In this document: piece after piece, positions 700 to 9,885 of the stretch | How the letters are laid out: each line of letters opens with the position of its first letter | Numbering within the stretch: position 1 is the stretch's first letter | Origin: a virus | Taxonomy: Duplodnaviria > Heunggongvirae > Uroviricota > Caudoviricetes | DNA length: 9,885 nucleotides | Direction: 5' to 3' (one strand) | Virus record (IMG/VR): IMGVR_UViG_2534681835_000035 | Notes under the pieces: generated by a model | What the model was told of the DNA's origin: nothing | The model's input: the letters and a program-made list of their open reading frames with translations, nothing else | The model's database searches: none | Made by a program: the position numbers and the translations under genes

Positions 700-1155
700 T
701 TAGTCTCCAGGATTTCCGGGGCGGTTCAGTTCAGCCATTTTGCGCTTAGTCATCCCCCGCCCCACATAACGCTGACTCAGAACATTGAGCAGCCCGGGAT
801 AACCTGCCAGTACTTCACCAATAACCCTGTCGATTATTAACGCCTCTGAATCGGTACAATGTGCCAGCCAGCTTTTTTGATTGCCGTTGATCATATCCCG
901 CAAAAAAGCCTCAAGTTCAGGTTTGTCCAGACCCGCTTTTTTCATCCTCCGGAGCGCCTCGTTAATTGCCGTTTTTGTCAGCTTTTTAGAGGTCAGTAAT
1001 TGGTTGAACATATTTCCCGTCTTACCGTCGCCAATATACGACCAACGCCCCCACATACGCAGTTTCCCCTGGATCCAGACACTTTCCAGCGTTTTCAGGC
1101 GTAAATGCTCACCGCTTTTGCCTGTAATTTCCGGGTATATCATATTTATGCTCAC
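700..1155 (-). CDS. Putative late-gene antiterminator (Q-like), 3' end disrupted by the IS insertion (last ~9 codons and the stop are IS-derived)
   Basis: 151-aa ORF directly downstream of rusA with an ATGA start/stop overlap, which is the position Q occupies in lambdoid phages. The reading frame crosses the IS terminus at 728/729, so the tail ...LNRPGNPGD and the stop are encoded by the IS inverted repeat. The Q assignment is by position and loose resemblance only, not by a recognised motif. Confidence 0.5.
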
Positions 1156-1511
1156 TCACTTTCAATTTTGTAAATCTTCACGCCCAGCCGCCCACCAGAA
1201 ACGAGCTGGCCGCGCACAATATTGATTTCATCAAACTGCTCGTCGTCTATGAGAAGTCCGGCATGCGTCAGCGCATCCAGTGGTGCTTTCAGGATATTGT
1301 CCAGGTCACGACGGCGCTTATCCGGTGGCTCTGCAATAATCTTTATCGCCAGCCTTCCGGACAGGTTTAATTTCAGCCGCTGCTGGCGAACAATAAGTGC
1401 CACATCCCGGCGATAACGCTCACCGGCTTTTGATACAAAATATGTGCTGCCACGACGTCGCCAGTAGGTGTTCACCGTCGGCGGGTAAGGCAAAACAAAC
1501 TCTATACGCAT
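1152..1511 (-). CDS. rusA: RusA-family Holliday junction resolvase (crossover junction endodeoxyribonuclease)
   Basis: 119 aa, MRIEFVLPYPPTVNTYWRRRG...PDKRRRDLDNILKAPLDALTHAGLLIDDEQF, matches the E. coli RusA pattern (PWPPS.N.YYR ... PDRRRRDLDN..KA..DALT.AG...DD.Q). Sits in the usual nin-region position upstream of Q. Confidence 0.9.
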   Translation of the reverse strand: MRIEFVLPYPPTVNTYWRRRGSTYFVSKAGERYRRDVALIVRQQRLKLNLSGRLAIKIIAEPPDKRRRDLDNILKAPLDALTHAGLLIDDEQFDEINIVRGQLVSGGRLGVKIYKIESE

Positions 1512-1523
1512 CAGTAACCTCTT

Positions 1524-2627
1524 TTACCCGAGCACGCCGGTTGCAAAGGCGTGATCAAGAAAACGAAAAATTAAATCAACCTGGGAACCATGCTTTTCTT
1601 CGAACGCCAGCGGATCCGCATGAAGCTCGTTGTGATGCTCCCGACACAGCGGTAGCGTGAAAATATCGTGGGATTTTGTTCCCATTCCGCCCTGACCATG
1701 ACCAATCAGATGATGAGGATCGTCCGCTGGCTTACCACAACACGCACACGGCTGTGTCTTTACCCAGCGTGTGTATTTCTCATTTACCCAGCGGCGACGT
1801 TTAGGTCGTTTCATGAAGGATTCCGGAGACTCCGGATCAACGGCAATGCTGACCACCGTCTTTTCCTGTGGTGGGTTCTGTTGCTGGTGGGTGTGAGGCG
1901 GTAGCGCAATATTTTTTGTGCGCTGCTTCAGTATGCTGGTGGCGGTCTGTTCTCCCGGTATGATGTCGCTTTCACGGTATACGGAGCGGATTTTTTCCGC
2001 CGGTAATCCCAGAGAGCGACGCGATACTGCCTCAGGTAATGCGTCCACCACCTGATTGCAGACTGCCCACCAGGATAATTCAGCCAGCGATAATTCCCGC
2101 TCCTGCGTGCCATTCATTACATGGCGTATGACGTCAATCATCCAGGCTGTCAGATTTTGTTGAGTAAGTTGCTCAAGTGATTCGGAGGTCTGGTCGCGCA
2201 GCTGGTTGTCGCAGTGCCAGCACAACACCATTGCGCCAGCACCGTAACTGTGAATAACGGTTTCGCTGTGATGATAATCGCCGTGTGGCCACTGGCAGGA
2301 TTTCACGTGACGTAATAACCAGTCAGACAGTGCACCAGCGCCGCCAGCTGCACGAATCACCCGCTCATCGCTGAAAAATGGCAGCAGTGATTTATCTTCC
2401 GCCAGCGGCTGGCGAACAGCAGGAACCGCTCCAGATGGCAGCGCCCGCATGTTTTTCGGTTCCGGCTCCACCAGCACCCTGCCGCGATGAAAAACTGGCA
2501 ATGATTCACGACCGGGCTTAAGGACCACCAGCCCGAGTTCCGGAACCAGAACAGGTCGAAGTAATACCCGCACATTACCTCCAGACGCGCTGACGGTAGC
2601 AGGCATGTGTCCGTGGCAGATGTGCAC
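1524..2627 (-). CDS. YdfU-like (DUF968-like) prophage protein with a C-terminal Cys/His-rich, HNH-like putative metal-binding motif; start codon uncertain
   Basis: 367-codon ORF from GTG 2627 (alternative ATG at 2606). C-terminal segment KTQPCACCGKPADDPHHLIGHGQGGMGTKSHDIFTLPLCREHHNELH has paired Cys and His residues. The gene sits 12 nt upstream of rusA, the same neighbourhood ydfU has next to Q in the Qin prophage. The DUF968 assignment is from memory. Confidence 0.65.
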   Translation of the reverse strand: MHICHGHMPATVSASGGNVRVLLRPVLVPELGLVVLKPGRESLPVFHRGRVLVEPEPKNMRALPSGAVPAVRQPLAEDKSLLPFFSDERVIRAAGGAGALSDWLLRHVKSCQWPHGDYHHSETVIHSYGAGAMVLCWHCDNQLRDQTSESLEQLTQQNLTAWMIDVIRHVMNGTQERELSLAELSWWAVCNQVVDALPEAVSRRSLGLPAEKIRSVYRESDIIPGEQTATSILKQRTKNIALPPHTHQQQNPPQEKTVVSIAVDPESPESFMKRPKRRRWVNEKYTRWVKTQPCACCGKPADDPHHLIGHGQGGMGTKSHDIFTLPLCREHHNELHADPLAFEEKHGSQVDLIFRFLDHAFATGVLG

Positions 2628-2847
2628 GAACAGGAAGATATACAGAAACGGTCCAGGTCAGACGATCAGCGTTCAGACTCCGCTCCACACGGACACCGCG
2701 ACGCAGATACGCCTCTTGAAGCATATCTGCCTCATCGATCGTACAGAACAGATAGTGAAACCAGCCATACTGAGGCGCACGAAAACGCCTCCCCTGCTTA
2801 ATTTCCGGGTCGGCTTCAGAATTGTGGGATTTTATGTGTTGTGTCAT
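2575..2847 (-). CDS. Hypothetical 90-aa protein overlapping the 5' end of the YdfU-like ORF by 53 nt in a different frame
   Basis: ATG at 2847 with a GGAG Shine-Dalgarno 6 nt upstream. The first ~60 residues look protein-like (MTQHIKSHNSEADPEIKQGRRFRAPQYGWFHYLFCTIDEADMLQEAYLRRG...); the last ~25 residues look like an out-of-frame readthrough. It occupies the position of rem in Qin, but no sequence match is claimed. Confidence 0.45.
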   Translation of the reverse strand: MTQHIKSHNSEADPEIKQGRRFRAPQYGWFHYLFCTIDEADMLQEAYLRRGVRVERSLNADRLTWTVSVYLPVRAHLPRTHACYRQRVWR

Positions 2848-2921
2848 CGGATTCTCCGGTGACAGCAGGTGTCAGTTGTTCAGGCTGACTGCGCGAATTG
2901 TAAGGCAATACGCCGGAATGT

Positions 2922-2950
2922 ACAAACAGAAAACCCGTCAGTAAGACGGG
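2922..2950 (-). terminator. Rho-independent terminator downstream of the YgiW-like gene
   Basis: On the minus strand a CCCGTC-TTACT-GACGGG hairpin (plus 2934..2950) is followed by TTTTCTGTTTGT, about 20 nt after the TAA stop at 2969. Confidence 0.55.
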
Positions 2951-2968
2951 CTTAACAAGCAGGGGCGG

Positions 2969-3313
2969 TTACTTTAATAATTTCAGTGCCTTTACATCAA
3001 CTTCAACACTGCTCAGGTCTTTATCAATTTCACCCTCAATTCTTACTTTGTCTTTCGGAGAAACATTCTGCCCGGCCCATACGCTGTCATCAATATCCGT
3101 GACAATTGTCCCGCTATTGTCACGAAACTCATAACGTTCATCACCCACTTTTTTAACGATGCTCCCTTCAAGGATAACCCATGCATCATCCTTCAGTTCT
3201 TTTGCCTGCGCTACTGTTGAACGCTCTGCTTCTGGCCCCTGGAAACCACCCTGCTGTGCAAAAGCGCCAAAAGACACACCGGAAATAAGTGCTGCAATCA
3301 ATACCTTTTTCAT
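2969..3313 (-). CDS. YgiW/YdeI (BOF) family periplasmic OB-fold protein with signal peptide
   Basis: 114 aa, MKKVLIAALISGVSFGAFA-QQGGFQGP..., with a signal peptide and AFA-QQ cleavage site, and the family pattern GGFQGP...W..L.G.IV......Y.F.D.SGTI..DID...W.G..V.PKD.V.I.GE.DKD..SVE.DVK. AGAGGA Shine-Dalgarno 7 nt before the ATG. Confidence 0.85.
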   Translation of the reverse strand: MKKVLIAALISGVSFGAFAQQGGFQGPEAERSTVAQAKELKDDAWVILEGSIVKKVGDERYEFRDNSGTIVTDIDDSVWAGQNVSPKDKVRIEGEIDKDLSSVEVDVKALKLLK

Positions 3314-3432
3314 TCATAGTCCTCTTTCAGAGATGAACATTCAAACAGCATTTTCAGTATGGTAAAGCGCGGGTGCGTTGAGGATGCCTGACACATCAGA
3401 GGTGGCGGGAGATTACTCCCCCGCCTGGTCTC

Positions 3433-3588
3433 TTACTTCTCAGATTCGTAGTCTACGAAGACAGCGACCTCCGTCTGACCGGTTCGGATTCGCACCTCGC
3501 AGAGGTCTTTCCTCGTTACCAGTGCCGTCACTATGACGGTTAAACAGATGACGATCAGGGCGATTAACATCGCCTTTTGCTGCTTCAT
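3433..3588 (-). CDS. hokD: Hok/Gef-family type I toxin (HokD/RelF-like small membrane peptide)
   Basis: 51 aa, MKQQKAMLIALIVICLTVIVTALVTRKDLCEVRIRTGQTEVAVFVDYESEK, near-identical to my recollection of RelF/HokD and carrying the Hok signature (LT/VTRK.LCE..IR.G..EVA.F..YES). AAGGAG Shine-Dalgarno 9 nt upstream of ATG 3588. The ORF track extends the same frame to an upstream ATG at 3645. Confidence 0.85.
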   Translation of the reverse strand: MKQQKAMLIALIVICLTVIVTALVTRKDLCEVRIRTGQTEVAVFVDYESEK

Positions 3589-3878
3589 AGCCTGCTTCTC
3601 CTTGCCTTTCGGCACGTAAGAGGCTAACCTACATGTGTTCAGCATGGATTGAGCCTCAGATTAATGTTAAGCGTCTTGCAGGACGCGTAATGTTAACTGG
3701 GGCTTTTCTCTATCTGCCGTTGGTGTTCATGCCCGAGGCAGATAGCCTCAAGCACCCGCTGCAATTCTACTTAACTATCCTTTTCCCGCAAACCGTTTTT
3801 ATCCCCAGCGGCAAATCGAATACTCCACCAGCGCCACCGCCATCGCAATTCCTACCGTTGTGAATGCTTCAGGCCAGG
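3589..3878 (-). promoter_or_regulatory. Long hok leader: candidate promoter, upstream in-frame mok-like start, and likely site of an antisense Sok-like RNA on the plus strand
   Basis: 290 bp separate the upstream gene from hok. Candidate minus-strand promoter TTGCGG-N16-TAGAAT (plus 3791..3764). Stable inverted repeats in the leader (TATCTGCC 3711..3718 with GGCAGATA 3737..3744; GCGTC 3671..3675 with GACGC 3682..3686) and an imperfect hairpin just 3' of hok (3404..3425). By analogy with hok/sok loci, an antisense RNA would be transcribed rightward from about 3600..3700, but its ends are not determined. Confidence 0.35.
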
Positions 3879-4436
3879 TCATTGATTCACCTCCTGCGGC
3901 GGTTCTGGTAGCGACATCCAGTGGGTTGCTTGCCTAAGATCATTACCCGGACTAACTGCTATACCTCCGCGCCGGAACGTGCCTCCGAGATAGCGTGCGG
4001 AATATATTAATGGCCCAGCCTCGCTATCGATATTCATCGAAATAAGCACGTTCTGGCTCTTTTCAGGCATTCGCTCAGTACAGCTTATCCAGCCATCCAG
4101 AGTTATCGGAGATCTGGTTGACGTTTCCGAGATTTCCCGAAAATTGTTGGTTGACGAATTCTTATTTTCCCGAAAGTTTCCGGCCTGAAGCATGGCGACG
4201 CGGCAGGCGTTCCAGCCATCAGCATATGTTTTAGTTACACCGTCGAGATGGCAGGTAAGCAAATCCATTTCATCAGGCACTACCATTGCTATCGGCTCTG
4301 CTTCCAGTGATGCCAGCGCGATACGAAACACATTAGCCAGCAGGCTGTCTGAAGACTTGTTATCGTGCGCCGAGTCGCTCAGGAAGCCTGTGATGTATGA
4401 TTTAATCTCCGCGCGTTCTCTGGTAATAGTGCTCAT
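3879..4436 (-). CDS. DUF551-domain prophage protein
   Basis: 185 aa; C-terminal GWISCTERMPEKSQNVLI...YSARYLGG...THWMSLPEPP matches the DUF551 signature as I recall it (W...ERLPE ... THWMPLPEPP). AAGGA Shine-Dalgarno 9 nt upstream; start is 1 nt from the preceding gene's stop. Confidence 0.8.
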   Translation of the reverse strand: MSTITRERAEIKSYITGFLSDSAHDNKSSDSLLANVFRIALASLEAEPIAMVVPDEMDLLTCHLDGVTKTYADGWNACRVAMLQAGNFRENKNSSTNNFREISETSTRSPITLDGWISCTERMPEKSQNVLISMNIDSEAGPLIYSARYLGGTFRRGGIAVSPGNDLRQATHWMSLPEPPQEVNQ

Positions 4437-4437
4437 A

Positions 4438-4656
4438 TCAGTTTTCCTTATACGGATTAATTTTATTGTGCAGTGCGCTGAATGATTCCCATGTCACATC
4501 GGTATATAGCTCAATAACTGGTTCAAATGTCCTTCCAATTATCCAGACCAGTAATAGCGGGGATATCGGTATCATCAACACTATAAACAGAATGAAAAAC
4601 AGAAACTCTGTTGTTCTGCTCTTTCGTGGGTAATTTTTTTCTAAATAATGTTTCAT
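4438..4656 (-). CDS. Small hypothetical membrane protein (one predicted transmembrane helix) in an AT-rich patch
   Basis: 72 aa with hydrophobic core FLFFILFIVLMIPISPLLLVWIIG. Tightly coupled to the DUF551 gene. The ATG is preceded by AGGAGG, then a CCGCCC-GAAA-GGGCGG hairpin, then 6 nt. Confidence 0.55.
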   Translation of the reverse strand: MKHYLEKNYPRKSRTTEFLFFILFIVLMIPISPLLLVWIIGRTFEPVIELYTDVTWESFSALHNKINPYKEN

Positions 4657-4662
4657 TTCTTA

Positions 4663-4684
4663 CCGCCCTTTCGGGCGGCCTCCT
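4663..4684 (-). other. Shine-Dalgarno, stable hairpin, start codon arrangement in the 5' UTR of the small membrane-protein gene
   Basis: Minus strand: AGGAGG (4684..4679), perfect 6-bp stem with GAAA loop (4678..4663), UAAGAA, AUG (4656). The unfolded SD-to-AUG spacing is about 22 nt and becomes about 6 nt if the hairpin forms. Confidence 0.35.
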
Positions 4685-4783
4685 GATGTTCTGAGGGTGC
4701 AGGAATCCCTCCGGTTAAGGATTTAATAAAAATCGTTTCTGATTTAAATCTTCAGTATTTAGTTGTTAGTTGGTTTATCGCCT

Positions 4784-5095
4784 TTATGCTTCAGCCTTAT
4801 TTCGCAACCAGACACAAACCGGGCCATCTTCCGTATCATGAATGGAACCAATAAACCAGCCATCGCCCTCTGGTCGTTCCGGTTCCCATGCAGAAATATC
4901 AGCATCACACGCATCAAGGTCAGCACATCCTTCATCTCTGAAGCAGAGGACGTATTGAAGATTATTTTCCTCCATCCAGGCGTTAAACTCTTCCGTTGAA
5001 ATATATTCCCGACCATCACAGAATTTTTCATATTCAGGATGTGTCCAGTAGCCATATCCGTCACGAACTACCGGCATTTCTTTAATTTTACTCAC
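4784..5095 (-). CDS. Hypothetical small, strongly acidic protein
   Basis: 103 aa with about 24 Asp/Glu against 9 Lys/Arg by my count (DEGCADLDACDADISAWEPERPEGDGW...). GTG start at 5095 with AGGAGG 6 nt upstream, overlapping the previous gene's stop (GTGAGTAA). Confidence 0.6.
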   Translation of the reverse strand: MSKIKEMPVVRDGYGYWTHPEYEKFCDGREYISTEEFNAWMEENNLQYVLCFRDEGCADLDACDADISAWEPERPEGDGWFIGSIHDTEDGPVCVWLRNKAEA

Positions 5096-5315
5096 TGTTA
5101 ACCTCCTGCAACGCTACACGATACGCCTTCTTTATCCACGCCTTACTGCCATATAATTTCGTCTTCATAATAAACACACCTGCACGACTCGCCGATATCC
5201 CCGGACAGGTTAACAGCACAGCATCCACCACACGGTTATGCTTCCGAAACTCCATTACAGTACTGCTGATAACCACCTGCCCCACCGGGCCGTAATCCTG
5301 ATACAGGATTTTCAC
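5088..5315 (-). CDS. Hypothetical 75-aa protein
   Basis: ORF translationally coupled to both neighbours (4-nt overlap upstream, 8-nt overlap downstream). No recognisable family. Confidence 0.5.
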   Translation of the reverse strand: MKILYQDYGPVGQVVISSTVMEFRKHNRVVDAVLLTCPGISASRAGVFIMKTKLYGSKAWIKKAYRVALQEVNSE

Positions 5316-5593
5316 GCAGACACCCTCCTGTCGAAATAAACGTAGTTATTCACTATGCGCAGCGGCATGCCTAATTTTCTGGCAATTTCCCTTCTTTGCA
5401 TGCCTCTCTGATGCAGTTGCCGCGCCAGCTCAATATCACGCTGAGAATATTTTGCCGACGGGTGAAAATCACCACGTAACATCATGCTGATGCCCAGCTC
5501 CCGTGCCTTCGTTCTCACTGCCGCTTCAGTTCGTCCGATAAGTGCGCCAACGCTTTTTACCTTCATCGTTCCCGCACACTGCCGGAGTATCAT
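5312..5593 (-). CDS. Hypothetical small protein with two helix-turn-helix-like segments; start uncertain
   Basis: ATG at 5593 (MILRQ...); alternatives are ATG 5566 and the ORF-track start 5716, which would overlap the upstream gene by 91 nt. HTH-like segments SVGALIGRTEAAVRTKARELGI and QRREIARKLGMPLRIVNNYV. Confidence 0.45.
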   Translation of the reverse strand: MILRQCAGTMKVKSVGALIGRTEAAVRTKARELGISMMLRGDFHPSAKYSQRDIELARQLHQRGMQRREIARKLGMPLRIVNNYVYFDRRVSA

Positions 5594-5625
5594 GATTTCC
5601 GCCCGGCACCACGTCTTCCACCCAC

Positions 5626-6360
5626 TCACCGCTGCTGTTCTCTGGTGGCGGTAATATCCCGGAGAATATCCCGGCACTTGTTCAGCTCCCGCAGCGCGGC
5701 GCAGACTCGCTCCCACTTCTGAACCTGACCTTTTGCCCGGCGCAGCTCGCGGTTAGCCACATGCAGCGATGGTAAAATCAGACCATCCGGATGCTTTCTG
5801 GTGAACGACGGCTGTGACTGCACTGTGACCGCCACACTTTCCGTTTTTATTTCTTCCTGTGTTTCCGCTTCCCCGACTGGTAACGCAACACCTGCTGGCT
5901 GAGGAAAGGCTTTACCATCCGTTTCCGCTATGGATGCGGCTTTCGGCTCTGCCGGTAAATCAGCGCCCGGTATGCAGTACCGAAATTTACCGCCCTGATT
6001 CACGCGAATCAGACGCCCTTTGCTGATTGCCATGGCCAGTGATGAATTCGCCCGGCGGGAGGTAATCCCGAACATCAGTGCCAGCTCATCCGCCGTTTGT
6101 GGGCCATGATGTTCAATCGCCTCAGTCAGCATTTGCGCTGTCACTTTCGGTACCGGTGACACTGGTTCACTTTCACCAGCCTGAATCAGCCACCACATCG
6201 AACCCTTGTTATCCGCTTCACCACGGCGCTTCAGTTTCCACAGTTCGTTGACAGCATCTTCGCGGCTGATTCCAAGGCGCGATGCCACTACCTGTGAAGA
6301 GGCTTTTTTCAGTGCTTTCAGTGCGTCAAATACAGTTTCCATTAAAACGTCCTCCAACAA
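5626..6360 (-). CDS. YdaW-like (DUF1627-like) prophage protein with two winged-helix-like repeats
   Basis: 244 aa, 3 nt downstream of the DnaC-like gene, as ydaW follows ydaV in Rac. Internal repeats [24 protein letters not shown] and [29 protein letters not shown]. Family name is from memory. Confidence 0.65.
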
Positions 6361-6363
6361 AAA

Positions 6364-7110
6364 TTACTTCACAACCCTCTGATTGCTGACATTTGGACGC
6401 CAGCTATCCCAGTTAAACGTCACCCACCGACCACCGTTCATGGTCATGCGGTCCATAATCCTCTCACCAAGAAGCGTGCTCATTGCGGCATGATTCAGGT
6501 TTGTTAACATCCCGACACTGCACAGTGATGCTGTCCGGCGATCAATTATCTGGTGTAATACCACCTGCTCGTTTTTCGTCTCCCGCTGAACGCCTATTTC
6601 ATCCAGGACCAGCAAATCAACACTGCAAAGCTCCTGTAAAAATTTTTCCCCGGATTTGCCGTTGTCGTAGCTGTCATGCAACACGCTCATGACATCAGAC
6701 ACGGTGACGATAATCACGCTGCGCCCCTTCGCCATCAGCCGGTTACCCATCGCCGCTGCAAGGTGATTTTTCCCGGTGCCGGTTTTACCGCTGAACACAA
6801 AATTCGTGCACCCGGTCATCAGTTCGTCAGCTATGGATTTGGCCTGGCTCAGCGCGTATTTTTGCCCGTCGTTCTGCACCTGATAATTCGCAAACGAGCA
6901 TTTGCTGTGCAGAGGCTGGATGCCCGAACGATTCAGGATTTTTTCCACCCGCAACTGGTGATTCTGGCGGTTAATCTCCTCGCTGCGTTTTCGTCCTTCA
7001 ACAAGTTGCCATTCCCGCCACTCCTCCACCGTCCGGTACGGTGGAACCGACGCCTGTGGTGCAAGTCTGCGAATACGTTCAAGAACCCCGGCTGCCGCAA
7101 TGTTTTTCAT
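6364..7110 (-). CDS. DnaC-like helicase loader (AAA+ IstB-like ATPase), phage replication protein
   Basis: 248 aa, collinear with E. coli DnaC: RSGIQPLHSKCSFANYQV, Walker A FSGKTGTGKNHLAAAMG, Walker B DLLVLDEIGVQ, C-terminal WVTFNWDSWR. Confidence 0.9.
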   Translation of the reverse strand: MKNIAAAGVLERIRRLAPQASVPPYRTVEEWREWQLVEGRKRSEEINRQNHQLRVEKILNRSGIQPLHSKCSFANYQVQNDGQKYALSQAKSIADELMTGCTNFVFSGKTGTGKNHLAAAMGNRLMAKGRSVIIVTVSDVMSVLHDSYDNGKSGEKFLQELCSVDLLVLDEIGVQRETKNEQVVLHQIIDRRTASLCSVGMLTNLNHAAMSTLLGERIMDRMTMNGGRWVTFNWDSWRPNVSNQRVVK

Positions 7111-7116
7111 GCCACA

Positions 7117-7770
7117 TCACCCCCTGAATCCCGGCGGAATTTCGGTATCCGGTTCAGAAATATGATTCACACAACGCTGGTTGTTCGTGCCGCTTACCGG
7201 GAGCAACCAGGGGTTTTCAAAATTCCGGTCCGGCCCAAAAAACGTCGTCGCTCGCTGAACAAATTCCGTTCCCGTTTTCCCGGTAGCCGCCAGGTATCTT
7301 GCGTAACGCCTCACACCATCCAGTATGGCCTCTGGTGGCACCCCCTCGCGTAATCTGGCCTTCCAGGCACTGAAAGCGGATTTCTTCGGGTTTGCCCCAG
7401 CACGCAACGGGTATTCCCGCCAGACCTGTTCGAACACATCCGGATAATCCACTCGTCCCACAGGCTGCCCGGTGTTTTCCGGGACTACCCGATCGGCTTC
7501 CCGCTGAATGGCGGAATCGGCTTCAGGCTGCTGCAGTTGGTGTGATTGCTCCGGCCTTGCGGTCATCACCTGCTGCACAGCGCCCGAATCGGCTTTCAGC
7601 GCATACGCTGAATCGGCTTCCGGTGTCGTGCCTGCTGGCTGACCAGGATTGACGGTCTGAACATCCCCTGCCTGGTTCGTGGCGTTTTTTACGCCATGGA
7701 CCATAGTGTTTTGATCTTCTTGATCTGTATCTTTATCTGTATCTTTATCTGTCGTGACTCGTCGTGACAT
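7117..7770 (-). CDS. Replication-initiator-like protein, C-terminal part (ORF2), possibly the 3' portion of a single gene frameshifted relative to 7745..8188
   Basis: 217 aa, ending 6 nt before the DnaC-like gene. C-terminal domain DYPDVFEQVWREYPLRAGANPKKSAFSAWKARL...TGKTGTEFVQRATTFFGPDRNFENPW resembles a replisome-organiser C-terminal motif. The 5' end lies inside the iteron array and encodes TDKDTDKDTD from tandem repeats. Confidence 0.6.
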   Translation of the reverse strand: MSRRVTTDKDTDKDTDQEDQNTMVHGVKNATNQAGDVQTVNPGQPAGTTPEADSAYALKADSGAVQQVMTARPEQSHQLQQPEADSAIQREADRVVPENTGQPVGRVDYPDVFEQVWREYPLRAGANPKKSAFSAWKARLREGVPPEAILDGVRRYARYLAATGKTGTEFVQRATTFFGPDRNFENPWLLPVSGTNNQRCVNHISEPDTEIPPGFRG

Positions 7771-7799
7771 GTGCGTGACATTTCGTGACGCGCCGTGAC
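7723..7799. repeat. Putative replication-origin repeats: 2.5 copies of a 12-bp tandem repeat (ATCTGTATCTTT) followed by five direct CGTGAC iteron-like repeats at 10-11 bp spacing
   Basis: CGTGAC at 7753, 7763, 7774, 7784 and 7794. The 12-mer is at 7723..7734 and 7735..7746 with a partial copy at 7747..7758. An AT-rich tract lies immediately to the left (about 7700..7750). Confidence 0.6.
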
Positions 7800-8188
7800 A
7801 ATCGCCATTTTGTTCCCGCTTTCTTTCCCTCTCTCGCTGCGCCCTCTTGCGCTCTGCAGGAGATTTTGCGGTTTGACGAAATATTGCCGTTGTCCTCTTT
7901 AAGCACCTGGCGTTTTTCCCATCCAGTGATTAAATCACCATCAAGTACCCGCCCCTGCATCGTCTGCAAAATTGAATCAATTACCTCTTCTGTCACGTCG
8001 AGCGCACTTGCCAAATCTTCTGTCGTGACATCAATGTGACCTCGCGTGACATTTCGTGACGCGCTCACCAGGAGGTGGATATACACTGCCATCACTGTTG
8101 CAATTGGCTGCCCTGACACCCTGGCAATTGTTCGCCACTTAGGGTCATTTGGCATGTCATGCCATAATCTGAGCCAGGCGTTAGCCAT
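7745..8188 (-). CDS. Replication-initiator-like protein, N-terminal part (ORF1)
   Basis: ATG at 8188 with AAGAGGTGA Shine-Dalgarno (the ORF track starts at GTG 8194). N-terminal MANAWLRLWHDMPNDPKWRTIARVSGQPIATVMAVYIHLL resembles phage replication-initiator DNA-binding domains. The ORF ends inside the first iteron cluster and overlaps ORF2 by 26 nt in the +1 frame. Confidence 0.6.
   Translation of the reverse strand: MANAWLRLWHDMPNDPKWRTIARVSGQPIATVMAVYIHLLVSASRNVTRGHIDVTTEDLASALDVTEEVIDSILQTMQGRVLDGDLITGWEKRQVLKEDNGNISSNRKISCRAQEGAAREGKKAGTKWRLSRRVTKCHAHVTTSHDR
7992..8064. repeat. Second iteron-like cluster: CGTGAC at 8024, 8045 and 8055, a TGTGAC variant at 8035, and an inverted copy GTCACG at 7992..7997
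   Basis: The 20-mer CGTGACATTTCGTGACGCGC occurs at both 7774..7793 and 8045..8064. Spacing is again 10-11 bp. Confidence 0.55.
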
Positions 8189-8259
8189 ACTCACCTCTTC
8201 TGATACCGAATCTTTTTACTCACGAGTTGCCGGAAGCGATTCGATACGGCTATTGTCAG

Positions 8260-8685
8260 TCAATGTACTGCCACAGCATTTCCTGCCGGGCCACCACGGT
8301 TCATCTGATTGAAACCGGCGATTGCCACTGCGACAAAATCATCAGCGTCTCTCACCAGTCGCTCCCGCGTCTCCACCAGCTCCCGAAAATAAGCTGAACT
8401 GTGGCTGCGCATTCTGGCCACCAGCAAAGGTGGCATTGCCTTTTCGATCGCTGGTAACAACGCCTGAATTTTTTCAACTGCATCAGGGGTGTCTTTCTCT
8501 ACCCAGCGGAAAATTTTCTGGGTATTGCGAGCCAGGGCTTCCGGATGGCTGTCGTCATACAGTTCAGGAAACGTCATACCCAACTCAAAATAAGCCTGGG
8601 TTATTCCAGCTGCTGGAACTTTTTCGCCATCAGGACGCGCCCAGGCATTCATCGCCATGCGGATGTGTTCATGCTTGATTTTCAT
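8260..8685 (-). CDS. YdaT-like prophage protein (occupies the cII position downstream of cro)
   Basis: 141 aa beginning MKIKHEHI and ending ...VH, matching my recollection of Rac YdaT-family proteins. AGGAG Shine-Dalgarno 8 nt upstream; overlaps the Cro-like gene by 17 nt. Confidence 0.6.
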   Translation of the reverse strand: MKIKHEHIRMAMNAWARPDGEKVPAAGITQAYFELGMTFPELYDDSHPEALARNTQKIFRWVEKDTPDAVEKIQALLPAIEKAMPPLLVARMRSHSSAYFRELVETRERLVRDADDFVAVAIAGFNQMNRGGPAGNAVAVH

Positions 8686-8950
8686 GAATCAAGCTCCTAG
8701 TAAGTGGTTGTGTTAACGTTTTGGTATCTTCCAGCTCGGGCCAAATATTCATCCAATCAAAAGGCCTTAGTTGCTGACGTGTAACTTCACCATTACTGGC
8801 TCGCTCAATAAGGACACATAACGATGCCCCTAACATTTGACCTTTACTCAATGCCTTTCTTAGATAACCGATGCTAGTACCACACTCACATGCAAACATA
8901 CGCTGTTCATCTGACGAAAGAGAATTGAGAAATATTCTTAATTCTTCCAT
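8669..8950 (-). CDS. Cro/YdaS-like HTH regulator
   Basis: 93 aa with a Cro-like motif (GTSIGYLRKALSKGQMLGASLCVLIERASNGEVTRQQLRPFDW). AAGGAG Shine-Dalgarno 6 nt upstream. Divergent from the repressor gene. Confidence 0.7.
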   Translation of the reverse strand: MEELRIFLNSLSSDEQRMFACECGTSIGYLRKALSKGQMLGASLCVLIERASNGEVTRQQLRPFDWMNIWPELEDTKTLTQPLTRSLIHENQA

Positions 8951-9049
8951 AGCTACTCCTTAGTAAACACAGCAAGAATACCCACAGGTAAACAAAAGTC
9001 AATACCCTTGGGTTGTTTACCTTGCGGTAATCGCATCTATTATTTACCT
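8951..9049. promoter_or_regulatory. Divergent promoter/operator region between the Cro-like and repressor genes (OR-like)
   Basis: Three TACC-N4-GGTA-type inverted repeats: 8979..8990 (TACCCACAGGTA), 9003..9014 (TACCCTTGGGTT, one arm imperfect) and 9018..9029 (TACCTTGCGGTA). Leftward PR-like promoter TTGACT (plus 9002..8997), 16-nt spacer, TATTCT (8980..8975). Rightward PRM-like -10 TATTAT (9038..9043) ends 6 nt before ATG 9050, suggesting a leaderless repressor mRNA. Confidence 0.55.
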
Positions 9050-9467
9050 ATGGACAAATATGAATTTAGACGACAACAACTCATCAAAATTCGTGATGAG
9101 AAATGCGATGGTAAAGCGGTTAACGTGGCCAGAAAGATCGGTCGCGAGCCTTCTTATGTATCAAGAATGTTGTACCCAGAGGGGAAAAAGGAAAAAACGG
9201 ATCGCTGATGATATGGTGGAGATTATAGAAGAGTCCTTTGGGTTACCCCGGGGATGGATGGATGGTATCGTTTCATCATCAACGAACACAGCCTCCAATT
9301 ATGAAACAAGGGTTCTAACGCCACGACAACGTATTTTTTTAGATCTCTTAGACGAACTGCCAGAAAGTGAAGCGGATAACTTATTAAAAACTCTTGAAGA
9401 GAAAAAACAGTATTACAATATGATCTACGAAGAAATCCGTAAAAAGAAAGCACAAAACGCATCATAA
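9050..9467 (+). CDS. CI/RacR-like prophage repressor, reading frame interrupted by an apparent +1 frameshift in the G4A5G2A6 tract at 9181..9197
   Basis: Frame A (ATG 9050) encodes an N-terminal HTH (KAVNVARKIGREPSYVSRMLYPEGKK) and stops at 9206..9208. Frame B continues from about 9198 with protein-like sequence RIADDMVEIIEESFGLPRGWMDG...LLKTLEEKKQYYNMIYEEIRKKKAQNAS to 9467. Removing one A from the A6 run would fuse them into a protein of about 138 aa. Confidence 0.6.
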
Positions 9468-9509
9468 CTCACCAAACAACCAGTCACCAGTTAAGACACA
9501 TCAAAAAAT

Positions 9510-9546
9510 TACCCATGGGTATTTACTTTTTAAATACCCATGGGTA
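9510..9546. promoter_or_regulatory. Two perfect 12-bp palindromes TACCCATGGGTA, 25 bp centre to centre: OL-like operators flanking a putative rightward promoter
   Basis: Palindromes at 9510..9521 and 9535..9546 share the TACC-N4-GGTA architecture with the OR-like sites. Between and over them: -35-like TTTACT (9522..9527), 17-nt spacer, -10-like TATCCT (9545..9550). Confidence 0.55.
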
Positions 9547-9732
9547 TCCTTCCTTTCATACCAACCCACCCCGTCCCACAGAACGCAGGGCAATACTTCG
9601 AGTTACCAGGCAGTGGTCAGGGGGTAAGTAGCCAGCCCGAGGCGTAAGAACATGACGGCAGGGTTCAACTTTAATAACTATGCAGCAGGTTTTTGTTCCG
9701 CTACCCCGGCGTTAAGGGGAAATGAGGTCAGC

Positions 9733-9885
9733 ATGGATACTATCGATCTTGGCAACAGCGAATCTCTGGTATGCGGCGTGTTTCCCAACCAGGACGGTAC
9801 GTTTACCGCGATGACGTATACCAAAAGTAAAACGTTTAAAACCGAAGCTGGCGCGCATCGCTGGTTAGCAAGAAACTCCGACTGA
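9733..9885 (+). CDS. Small early protein (YdaF/YdaG-like), first gene of the rightward operon leaving the immunity region
   Basis: 50 aa, MDTIDLGNSESLVCGVFPNQDGTFTAMTYTKSKTFKTEAGAHRWLARNSD, with GAGG Shine-Dalgarno 6 nt upstream of ATG 9733 (the ORF track starts further upstream at 9652). Resemblance to Rac YdaF is from memory. Confidence 0.5.
   Translation: MDTIDLGNSESLVCGVFPNQDGTFTAMTYTKSKTFKTEAGAHRWLARNSD

Follow-up and report, generated by a model that had tools for sequence, protein, structure and literature searches.

Genes at the locus

The window analysed here, a 9,885-nt stretch of viral DNA (IMG/VR record IMGVR_UViG_2534681835_000035), derives from a Shiga-toxigenic E. coli lambdoid prophage. 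Over positions 1400-3000 it matches a prophage region of O157:H7 PV15-279 and of many other Shiga-toxigenic strains at 100% identity; of the 517 genomes that carry this whole stretch, 493 match it at an identity of at least 99%. All genes in this part of the window lie on the minus strand and follow one another, in the direction of transcription, in the order DUF551, hok/gef toxin, a YgiW/BOF-family gene (2969-3313), a 90-codon ORF (2575-2847), the DUF968/YdfU gene, RusA (1152-1511), and the Q-like DUF1133 gene. The gene set identifies this part as the delayed-early (nin) region of a lambdoid phage. The features considered below are the following:

2575-2847, minus strand: small nin-region gene, 90 aa, family phrog_1212; annotated in RefSeq with the same CDS coordinates (WP_000191872.1, "hypothetical protein")
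2574-2627, minus strand: 18 codons (MHICHGHMPATVSASGGN) added at the 5' end by the longest ORF, interpreted as spurious; not part of ydfU, the other frame encoding the C-terminal tail of the small protein
2571-2585, minus strand: stop-start junction TCTGGAGGTAATGTG, with the GGAGG Shine-Dalgarno (SD) sequence at 2578-2582, TAA at 2575-2577, a one-base spacer at 2574, and the ydfU GTG at 2571-2573
1524-2573, minus strand: ydfU-like gene, 349 aa, DUF968 family; RefSeq CDS WP_001265229.1, with GTG at 2573
2205-2297, minus strand: central Cys/His motif of YdfU, C93-Q...Y-H-H(100-102)...L-C118-W-H-C-D122-N, a putative second zinc site within the N-terminal ~160 residues
1620-1748, minus strand: His-Me (HNH) finger core of YdfU, C276-x2-C279, D284-D-P-H287-H288, D303, C310-x2-H313-H314, H318
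1152-1511, minus strand: RusA Holliday-junction resolvase gene (Pfam RusA, E = 5e-16; RefSeq annotation), 12 nt downstream of ydfU and in the same operon

In a list of open reading frames, the same region appears as a 367-codon ORF with a GTG start (1524-2627, minus strand) and the 90-codon ORF (2575-2847, minus strand), which share 53 nt, the larger one being in the +1 frame. A preliminary description of this DNA had accordingly reported a ydfU-like gene overlapped for 53 nt by a +1-offset upstream ORF, and had offered a frameshifted fusion, an alternative start, or genuinely overlapping genes as explanations.

The start codon of ydfU and the stop-start junction

An exhaustive phmmer search with YdfU, performed against 1.84 billion representatives, returned 3083 homologues. 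Full-length homologues with 27-57% identity align with it residue 1 on residue 1, and this alignment, which the preliminary description had proposed as a way to find the true N-terminus, sets residue 1 at the codon GTG 2573. K-12 ydfU and the phage Evi gene likewise encode 349 aa, and the phrog_96 "HNH endonuclease" profile (positions 1-333) aligns to residues 1-348 of the 349-aa form (E = 2.6e-174). Within the homologue alignment, the N-terminus M-x-x-L-L-x-P is conserved, as are, almost without exception, G14 and G48. The first ~60 residues of YdfU, earlier taken to be low-complexity, align one to one with homologues down to 26% identity, and that description does not hold. Among 80 loci of different species, the codon at residue 1 is ATG, GTG, or TTG in 77, an interchange that only a start codon would explain. 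The in-frame open stretch upstream of residue 1, on the other hand, ranges from 0 to 171 nt across the 80 loci and is conserved in neither length nor sequence. Thus, the two ORFs and their shared 53 nt do exist, but the genes themselves do not overlap.

A true overlap would require YdfU to be translated from GTG 2627 or ATG 2606, with an extension of 11-18 residues in the +1 frame over the 3' end of the small gene. The frame is indeed open and holds both codons, and some gene callers have picked similar extended starts elsewhere (e.g., P0060, 377 aa, and P0106, 375 aa). However, neither codon is preceded by an SD sequence, the anti-SD duplex amounting to -3.2 kcal/mol at ATG 2606 and +0.9 kcal/mol at GTG 2627, as compared to -10.6 kcal/mol at GTG 2573. 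Moreover, the extensions are wholly different between prophage types (MHICHGHMPATVSASGGN versus MSGCLIPNAHHVRPALSSNGSGGN), the only residues in common being those imposed by the SD sequence and the stop; in 12 of the 80 loci the extension is missing or is blocked by a stop codon 0-3 nt upstream of the YdfU start; and profiles and distant homologues begin at residue 1 of the 349-aa form. On this evidence, a true overlap is very unlikely. Since the 18 codons upstream of GTG 2573 sit in an in-frame open extension of 28 codons, and a run of 28 codons without a stop is likely enough to arise by chance (P ~0.26), the 53-nt overlap is best regarded as an artefact of the longest-ORF rule.

Two features count against GTG 2573: as a start codon GTG is weaker than ATG, and the 4-nt spacing between SD sequence and start is at the short end. 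Nevertheless, RefSeq, K-12, phrog_96, the homologues, and 77 of the 80 loci agree in placing the real start of ydfU at GTG 2573, to give 349 aa, and not at GTG 2627. Among the earlier explanations, therefore, the alternative start came close, the start in question being a downstream one; with it there is no overlap at all, and neither a frameshifted fusion nor genuinely overlapping genes found support. More generally, a longest-ORF rule makes a false overlap at a tight stop-start junction with an SD sequence in the last codons of the upstream gene, and it is the comparative evidence that fixes the N-terminus of YdfU.

The GGAGG of ydfU sits within the W89-R90 codons (TGG AGG) of the small gene, so that the junction reads ...TGG AGG TAA T GTG... 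The junction TGGAGGTAAYGTG is common to K-12 Qin, phages Evi and Tritos, and 7 Escherichia/Shigella loci. In almost all members of the small-gene family, TGG-(G/A)GG-stop ends the gene and the next start follows within 1-4 nt, regardless of the gene it belongs to; TGG-GGG/AGG-stop junctions analogous to that of ydfU also precede NinG, HNH, and RusA genes. The terminal Trp-Arg/Gly codons thus also serve as the SD sequence of the following gene. An SD sequence inside the last codons of an upstream gene is a common arrangement where translation is coupled in phage operons. Considering that TGG AGG holds the SD sequence of the second gene and that its start lies one base after the TAA, the pair appears to be built for translational coupling: a ribosome ending the small gene, or one recruited at GGAGG, would initiate ydfU, and coupling may set how much of the small protein is made relative to YdfU.

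The small gene and its neighbours

By homology, the 90-aa ORF is a real and complete gene of phrog_1212. The profile of this family aligns end to end, positions 2-66 of 66 matching residues 26-90 of the small protein through its last residue (E = 1.5e-34), and the ORF in the corresponding place ahead of K-12 ydfU is 35% identical to it over the full length (E = 2e-18), including the final W-R. A profile search returned 355 homologous clusters of 66-92 aa, which fall into a group of 66-68 aa and one of 90-92 aa (the latter from Escherichia); the small protein aligns with the 66-68-aa proteins of Gifsy-1/2, mEp237, phiES15, and Klebsiella, Erwinia, and Edwardsiella phages, and the Trp one residue before the stop is nearly invariant across its homologues. 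The protein has a disordered N-terminus of 25 aa, a beta-alpha-beta-beta core (26-73), and a tail that ends in W89-R90-stop. AlphaFold2, supplied with an alignment of homologues, modelled the core with a pLDDT of ~95, strand beta3 (65-73) included, while the last ~15 residues and the N-terminal 25 were less ordered. The gene also has an SD sequence of its own (GGAGAA, 6 nt before ATG 2847; duplex -6.6 kcal/mol). The earlier suggestion that the last ~30 residues of this ORF read as out-of-frame sequence is contradicted by the phrog_1212 match to residue 90, by the identity with the K-12 ORF to its end, and by the confident model of beta3.

A PDB fold search with the beta-alpha-beta-beta core gave generic matches only (best E = 0.48), so no function was drawn from the fold, and searches of Pfam, NCBIfam, and PADLOC with the small ORF gave no match. 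Database variants of the small protein with a frameshift or an in-frame deletion (P0002, P0006) or with a fusion (P0049) are single-member or low-count entries, which we attribute to sequencing errors or sporadic mutants and not to a conserved form.

The small gene occurs ahead of a variety of genes other than ydfU:

Small gene, then NinG: Gifsy-2, Klebsiella ST16-OXA48phi5.1, Edwardsiella GF-2, and 76 of 80 Gifsy-type viral contigs
Small gene, then a YbcO-like HNH gene, then RusA: mEp237, phiES15
Small gene, then RusA, then YdfU: Citrobacter Chris1
Small gene, then cytosine methyltransferase (Dcm): Erwinia phage 59
Small gene, then PAPS reductase: Huey

The 80 Gifsy-type contigs come from a viral scan with the Gifsy-2 protein that recovered near-identical loci only, and they therefore add little diversity. 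Conversely, in 57 of the 80 ydfU loci the small gene is absent from the 1.5 kb upstream of ydfU, and in 14 a gene of RusA size stands between the two. The small gene is directly next to ydfU only in Escherichia/Shigella (7 loci, at +1 nt) and in Klebsiella (2 loci, with a TGATG overlap). As judged from these gene orders, the small gene and ydfU are shown to be independent, separately conserved modules. Nucleotide similarity of the window to other ydfU-carrying phages and loci begins only at ~2589, just upstream of the ydfU start, which puts a mosaic joint at the boundary between the genes. Homologues in which the two genes are independent, do not overlap, and keep these boundaries, which the preliminary description had named as evidence against its own reading, are thus on record, and the small gene also stands before unrelated genes; most of what that reading was to be judged by has gone against it.

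These distributions also bear on a fusion of the two ORFs, either by a +1 shift at the TAA (...AGG TAA T GTG...), which would give a product of ~440 aa, or as the original state of one gene that a frameshift mutation has split. A ribosome that skips a base at the stop does reach the ydfU frame, the SD-like GGAGG adjoins the stop, and the single-member entry P0049 (438 aa) fuses a K-12-type small ORF in frame with YdfU. However, the two genes are distributed independently, and among the matches listed (120 small-protein homologues) there is no long fusion protein, the longest having 143 aa. The frame relation is not conserved either, since the spacer between the small gene and the next gene varies (+1, +2, -1, and -4 nt) and the relation of frames varies with it. 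In prfB, the SD-like element lies 3 nt upstream of the shift-prone codon; here, GGAGG abuts the stop and the overlap has no slippery run. The locus thus lacks the marks of a prfB-like programmed +1 frameshift. As for a broken gene, the presence of this exact arrangement in 493 E. coli genomes at an identity of at least 99% argues against a recent inactivating mutation. We consider a frameshift fusion, in either form, exceedingly improbable.

In most of the contexts seen, the small gene is immediately 5' of a nuclease gene (NinG, YbcO-like, RusA, or YdfU), so that phrog_1212 emerges as a conserved family of nin-region genes (66-92 aa) usually ahead of a gene for a junction-processing nuclease. 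Conceivably, the phrog_1212 protein could work specifically with the nin-region junction nucleases, for instance by inhibiting them, by setting their specificity, or by loading them. Its position allows a functional partnership but does not in itself show one, and we hold this role to be improbable. If it were true, the use of the last codons as the ribosome binding site of the nuclease gene would fix the ratio of the two proteins.

YdfU and its predicted activity

Profile matches identify YdfU as a member of DUF968 whose C-terminal part holds a His-Me (HNH) finger, in agreement with earlier descriptions in the literature. Pfam DUF968 (PF06147) matches residues 160-346 with 259.2 bits against a cutoff of 27.8, over positions 1-171 of 171 of the profile, and HNHc_6 matches weakly (E = 1e-4). 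The preliminary description had noted a C-terminal motif, CxxC(276-279)...HH(287-288)...C310...HH(313-314)...H318, and had read it as metal-binding or nuclease-like. The motif is present and conserved, C276, C279, H287, H288, D303, C310, H314, and H318 being invariant in a homologue alignment that spans 37-81% identity, and its reading is borne out by the DUF968 and phrog_96 matches and by the place of the family among His-Me finger proteins (PMC5714182). All residues expected of such a finger for an active site and a structural zinc are found in the YdfU of the window. Jablonska et al. (2017; PMC5714182) place DUF968, the family of K-12 YdfU, in His-Me finger group 7 together with DUF1364/YbcO (PDB 3g27); DUF968 genes neighbour RusA and Q, and a NinG-like role in recombination or repair has been proposed (PMC5714182). 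K-12 YdfU is still listed as uncharacterised (PMC11551758), and the papers found report no nuclease assay for any DUF968 protein.

Structural searches gave less. A close YdfU profile matched YbcO (3g27) weakly over residues 277-322 in a PDB sequence search (E = 0.75), and a diverse YdfU profile found no relative there. AlphaFold2 modelled the C-terminal part as beta(285-288)-beta(306-309)-alpha(311-319), with a pLDDT of 62-88; the model as a whole was poor (mean pLDDT 53), with an N-terminal fold that could not be interpreted, because only close homologues (at least 78% identity) were supplied. With this poor model, the top Foldseek matches in the PDB were HNH proteins (IscB, Cas5-HNH, and Cap5), all with E of at least 0.25 and hence not significant.

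The N-terminal part of YdfU is conserved and carries the second Cys/His cluster, in which C93, C118, W119, and D122 vary little or not at all across 26 homologues whose identity falls to as low as 26%. Pfam had no match to residues 1-159, and a scan of residues 1-208 at E <= 1 found only the start of DUF968 and no NinB, DUF1367, or YbcN-like domain. A degenerate copy of the HNH finger was considered for the central motif (93-123): hhalign aligned residues 50-140 with 238-330 collinearly (E = 0.065), at a score of 13.4 compared to 10.7 +/- 2.4 in 100 column shuffles. Since this similarity is not significant, no internal duplication is claimed. Among the PADLOC defence-system models, YdfU had only a PglZ match of 13.7 bits, at chance level, and the small ORF had none.

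The finger might serve YdfU in another way, the His-Me fold being kept only as a zinc or DNA-binding module of a protein that is inactive as a nuclease and has a DNA-binding or regulatory role. One group 7 member has been annotated as a transcriptional regulator (PMC5714182), and the phage Evi copy is annotated as "antitermination protein Q". The HH dyad is also lost in some homologues (P0322, P0346, and P0380), so not all members of the family can be nucleases. In the window's YdfU, however, H287-H288, D303, H314/H318, and the four zinc ligands are kept, and they are invariant in homologues down to ~37% identity; furthermore, the gene lies beside RusA, in the position of NinG or YbcO. A protein without nuclease activity is therefore doubtful, and YdfU, encoded beside RusA, is probably a nuclease on recombination or replication intermediates.

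Taken as a whole, the locus in all likelihood comprises two separate, co-oriented nin-region genes, with ydfU beginning at GTG 2573 and coupled to the small gene, and with a zinc-stabilised His-Me finger at the C-terminus of YdfU. Both genes would be transcribed with the delayed-early operon, and translation of the two would be coupled. YdfU may then serve as a zinc-stabilised nuclease that depends on metal and acts together with RusA on branched or single-stranded intermediates of recombination or replication, and may fill the slot that NinG/Rap or YbcO holds in other lambdoid phages. The finding is an ordinary one, namely two already annotated, non-overlapping genes, one of a known nuclease-like family and one of a small phage family. 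It matters little beyond annotation hygiene, and nothing in it is unexpected for lambdoid phages.

Known systems resemble this arrangement to different degrees. DLP12 YbcO (DUF1364, PDB 3g27) belongs to the same His-Me finger group as YdfU, and the YbcO-like HNH genes of mEp237 and phiES15 occupy the same slot, in the order phrog_1212 gene, nuclease, RusA, Q. The YbcO-like proteins have ~96 aa and consist of the finger only, whereas YdfU adds a conserved N-terminal part of ~250 residues with the second Cys/His cluster. In Gifsy-1/2, Klebsiella phages, and Edwardsiella GF-2, the same slot after the phrog_1212 gene is taken by lambda NinG/Rap (PF05766, His-Me finger group 24), a nin-region endonuclease that is branch-specific (PMC4118853; PMC5714182). 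NinG/Rap is of a different Pfam family from YdfU, and sequence similarity between NinG/Rap and YdfU was not detected; from gene position, we infer that YdfU may be its functional analogue. Some DUF968 members of Gram-positive phages carry an Orf-like N-terminal domain (PMC4118853). These Orf(NinB)-HNH fusions, e.g., phiETA Orf20 (Curtis et al., 2014; PMC4118853), have the C-terminal DUF968 HNH in common with YdfU, whose N-terminal 208 residues, by contrast, match neither NinB, DUF1367, nor any other Pfam family except at the start of DUF968. In phages related to that of the window (mEp237 and phiES15), NinB/YbcN is a separate gene.

The closest comparison is with E. coli itself, in which close YdfU homologues are 78-93% identical to the protein of the window. 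YdfU of K-12 Qin (b1560), like that of the window, has 349 aa, begins with MRVLLRPVLVPELGL..., matches DUF968, and is encoded upstream of a gene for a Q-like antiterminator; the junction TGGAGGTAAYGTG with a phrog_1212 ORF upstream of ydfU is also the same. In contrast to the window, the Q-like ydfT lies directly downstream of ydfU in K-12, with no RusA between them, and the upstream small ORF, at 1644306-1644584 on the minus strand of the K-12 genome, is of the divergent type (35% identity). This intact copy of phrog_1212 adjoining ydfU in E. coli K-12 is unannotated in NC_000913.3.

Candidate signals and an unannotated ORF upstream of ydfU

An ORF of the phrog_1212 family also lies beside ydfU in E. 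coli K-12 MG1655 (locus L004):

L004 3307-3585, equivalent to NC_000913.3 about 1644306-1644584, (-) strand: phrog_1212 ORF, 92 aa, intact

This ORF, which reads MARNAKYYNSDNSP…QQRIWR, is preceded by its own SD, and its TGGAGGTAACGTG junction to ydfU is the same as that in the window. It sits within the 346-bp 'intergenic' gap from rem to ydfU and is unannotated in the RefSeq record of the strain (NC_000913.3). According to PMC9160355, the region upstream of ydfU contains a very strong Rho-dependent terminator. In the window, two signals were found between the YgiW/BOF moron gene and the small phrog_1212 ORF, each a consensus match only, and such matches are about as frequent as chance predicts:

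2931-2953, (-) strand: terminator-like hairpin, 3' of the moron gene
2897-2924, (-) strand: sigma-70-like promoter match, just 5' of the small ORF

Divergent and probably misplaced YdfU homologues

In three full-length YdfU homologues (P0322, P0346, and P0380; 26-30% identity), alignment showed that the central C…CWHHDN motif is retained, as is the N-terminal region. Their C-terminal finger, however, no longer has the HH dyad or the GGMG loop, and these homologues are probably catalytically inactive variants. In three other proteins (P0271, P0314, and P0315), the first ~150-270 YdfU residues are joined to phage tail-fibre or tip domains, likely as a result of prophage rearrangement or chimeric assembly. 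Enterobacterial-type ydfU genes (43-85% identity) also occurred at loci whose assemblies are labeled Veillonella parvula MAG (L015), Caulobacter segnis MAG (L022), Vagococcus sp. (L050), and Pseudomonas lundensis (L089), probably representing mis-binned or contaminated contigs.

Mosaicism and the IS element

Apart from an IS copy at 1-728, the match to E. coli O157:H7 strain PV15-279 is confined to window positions 730-5237 (99.9%). Positions 5238-9885 carry the replication and immunity genes and belong to a different module, as is typical of lambdoid mosaicism. Among these genes are:

6364-7110: DnaC-like gene
7117-7770: O-like gene

At the start of the window, an IS element abuts a Q-like DUF1133 gene (700-1155):

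1-728: IS3-family element, matching the IS1203-like copy of PV15-279 at 100% identity
348-674, (-) strand: orfA of this element

The Q-like ORF encodes 151 aa in the window, whereas that of PV15-279 encodes 184 aa; therefore, the late-gene antiterminator appears to have been truncated by the IS3-family insertion.
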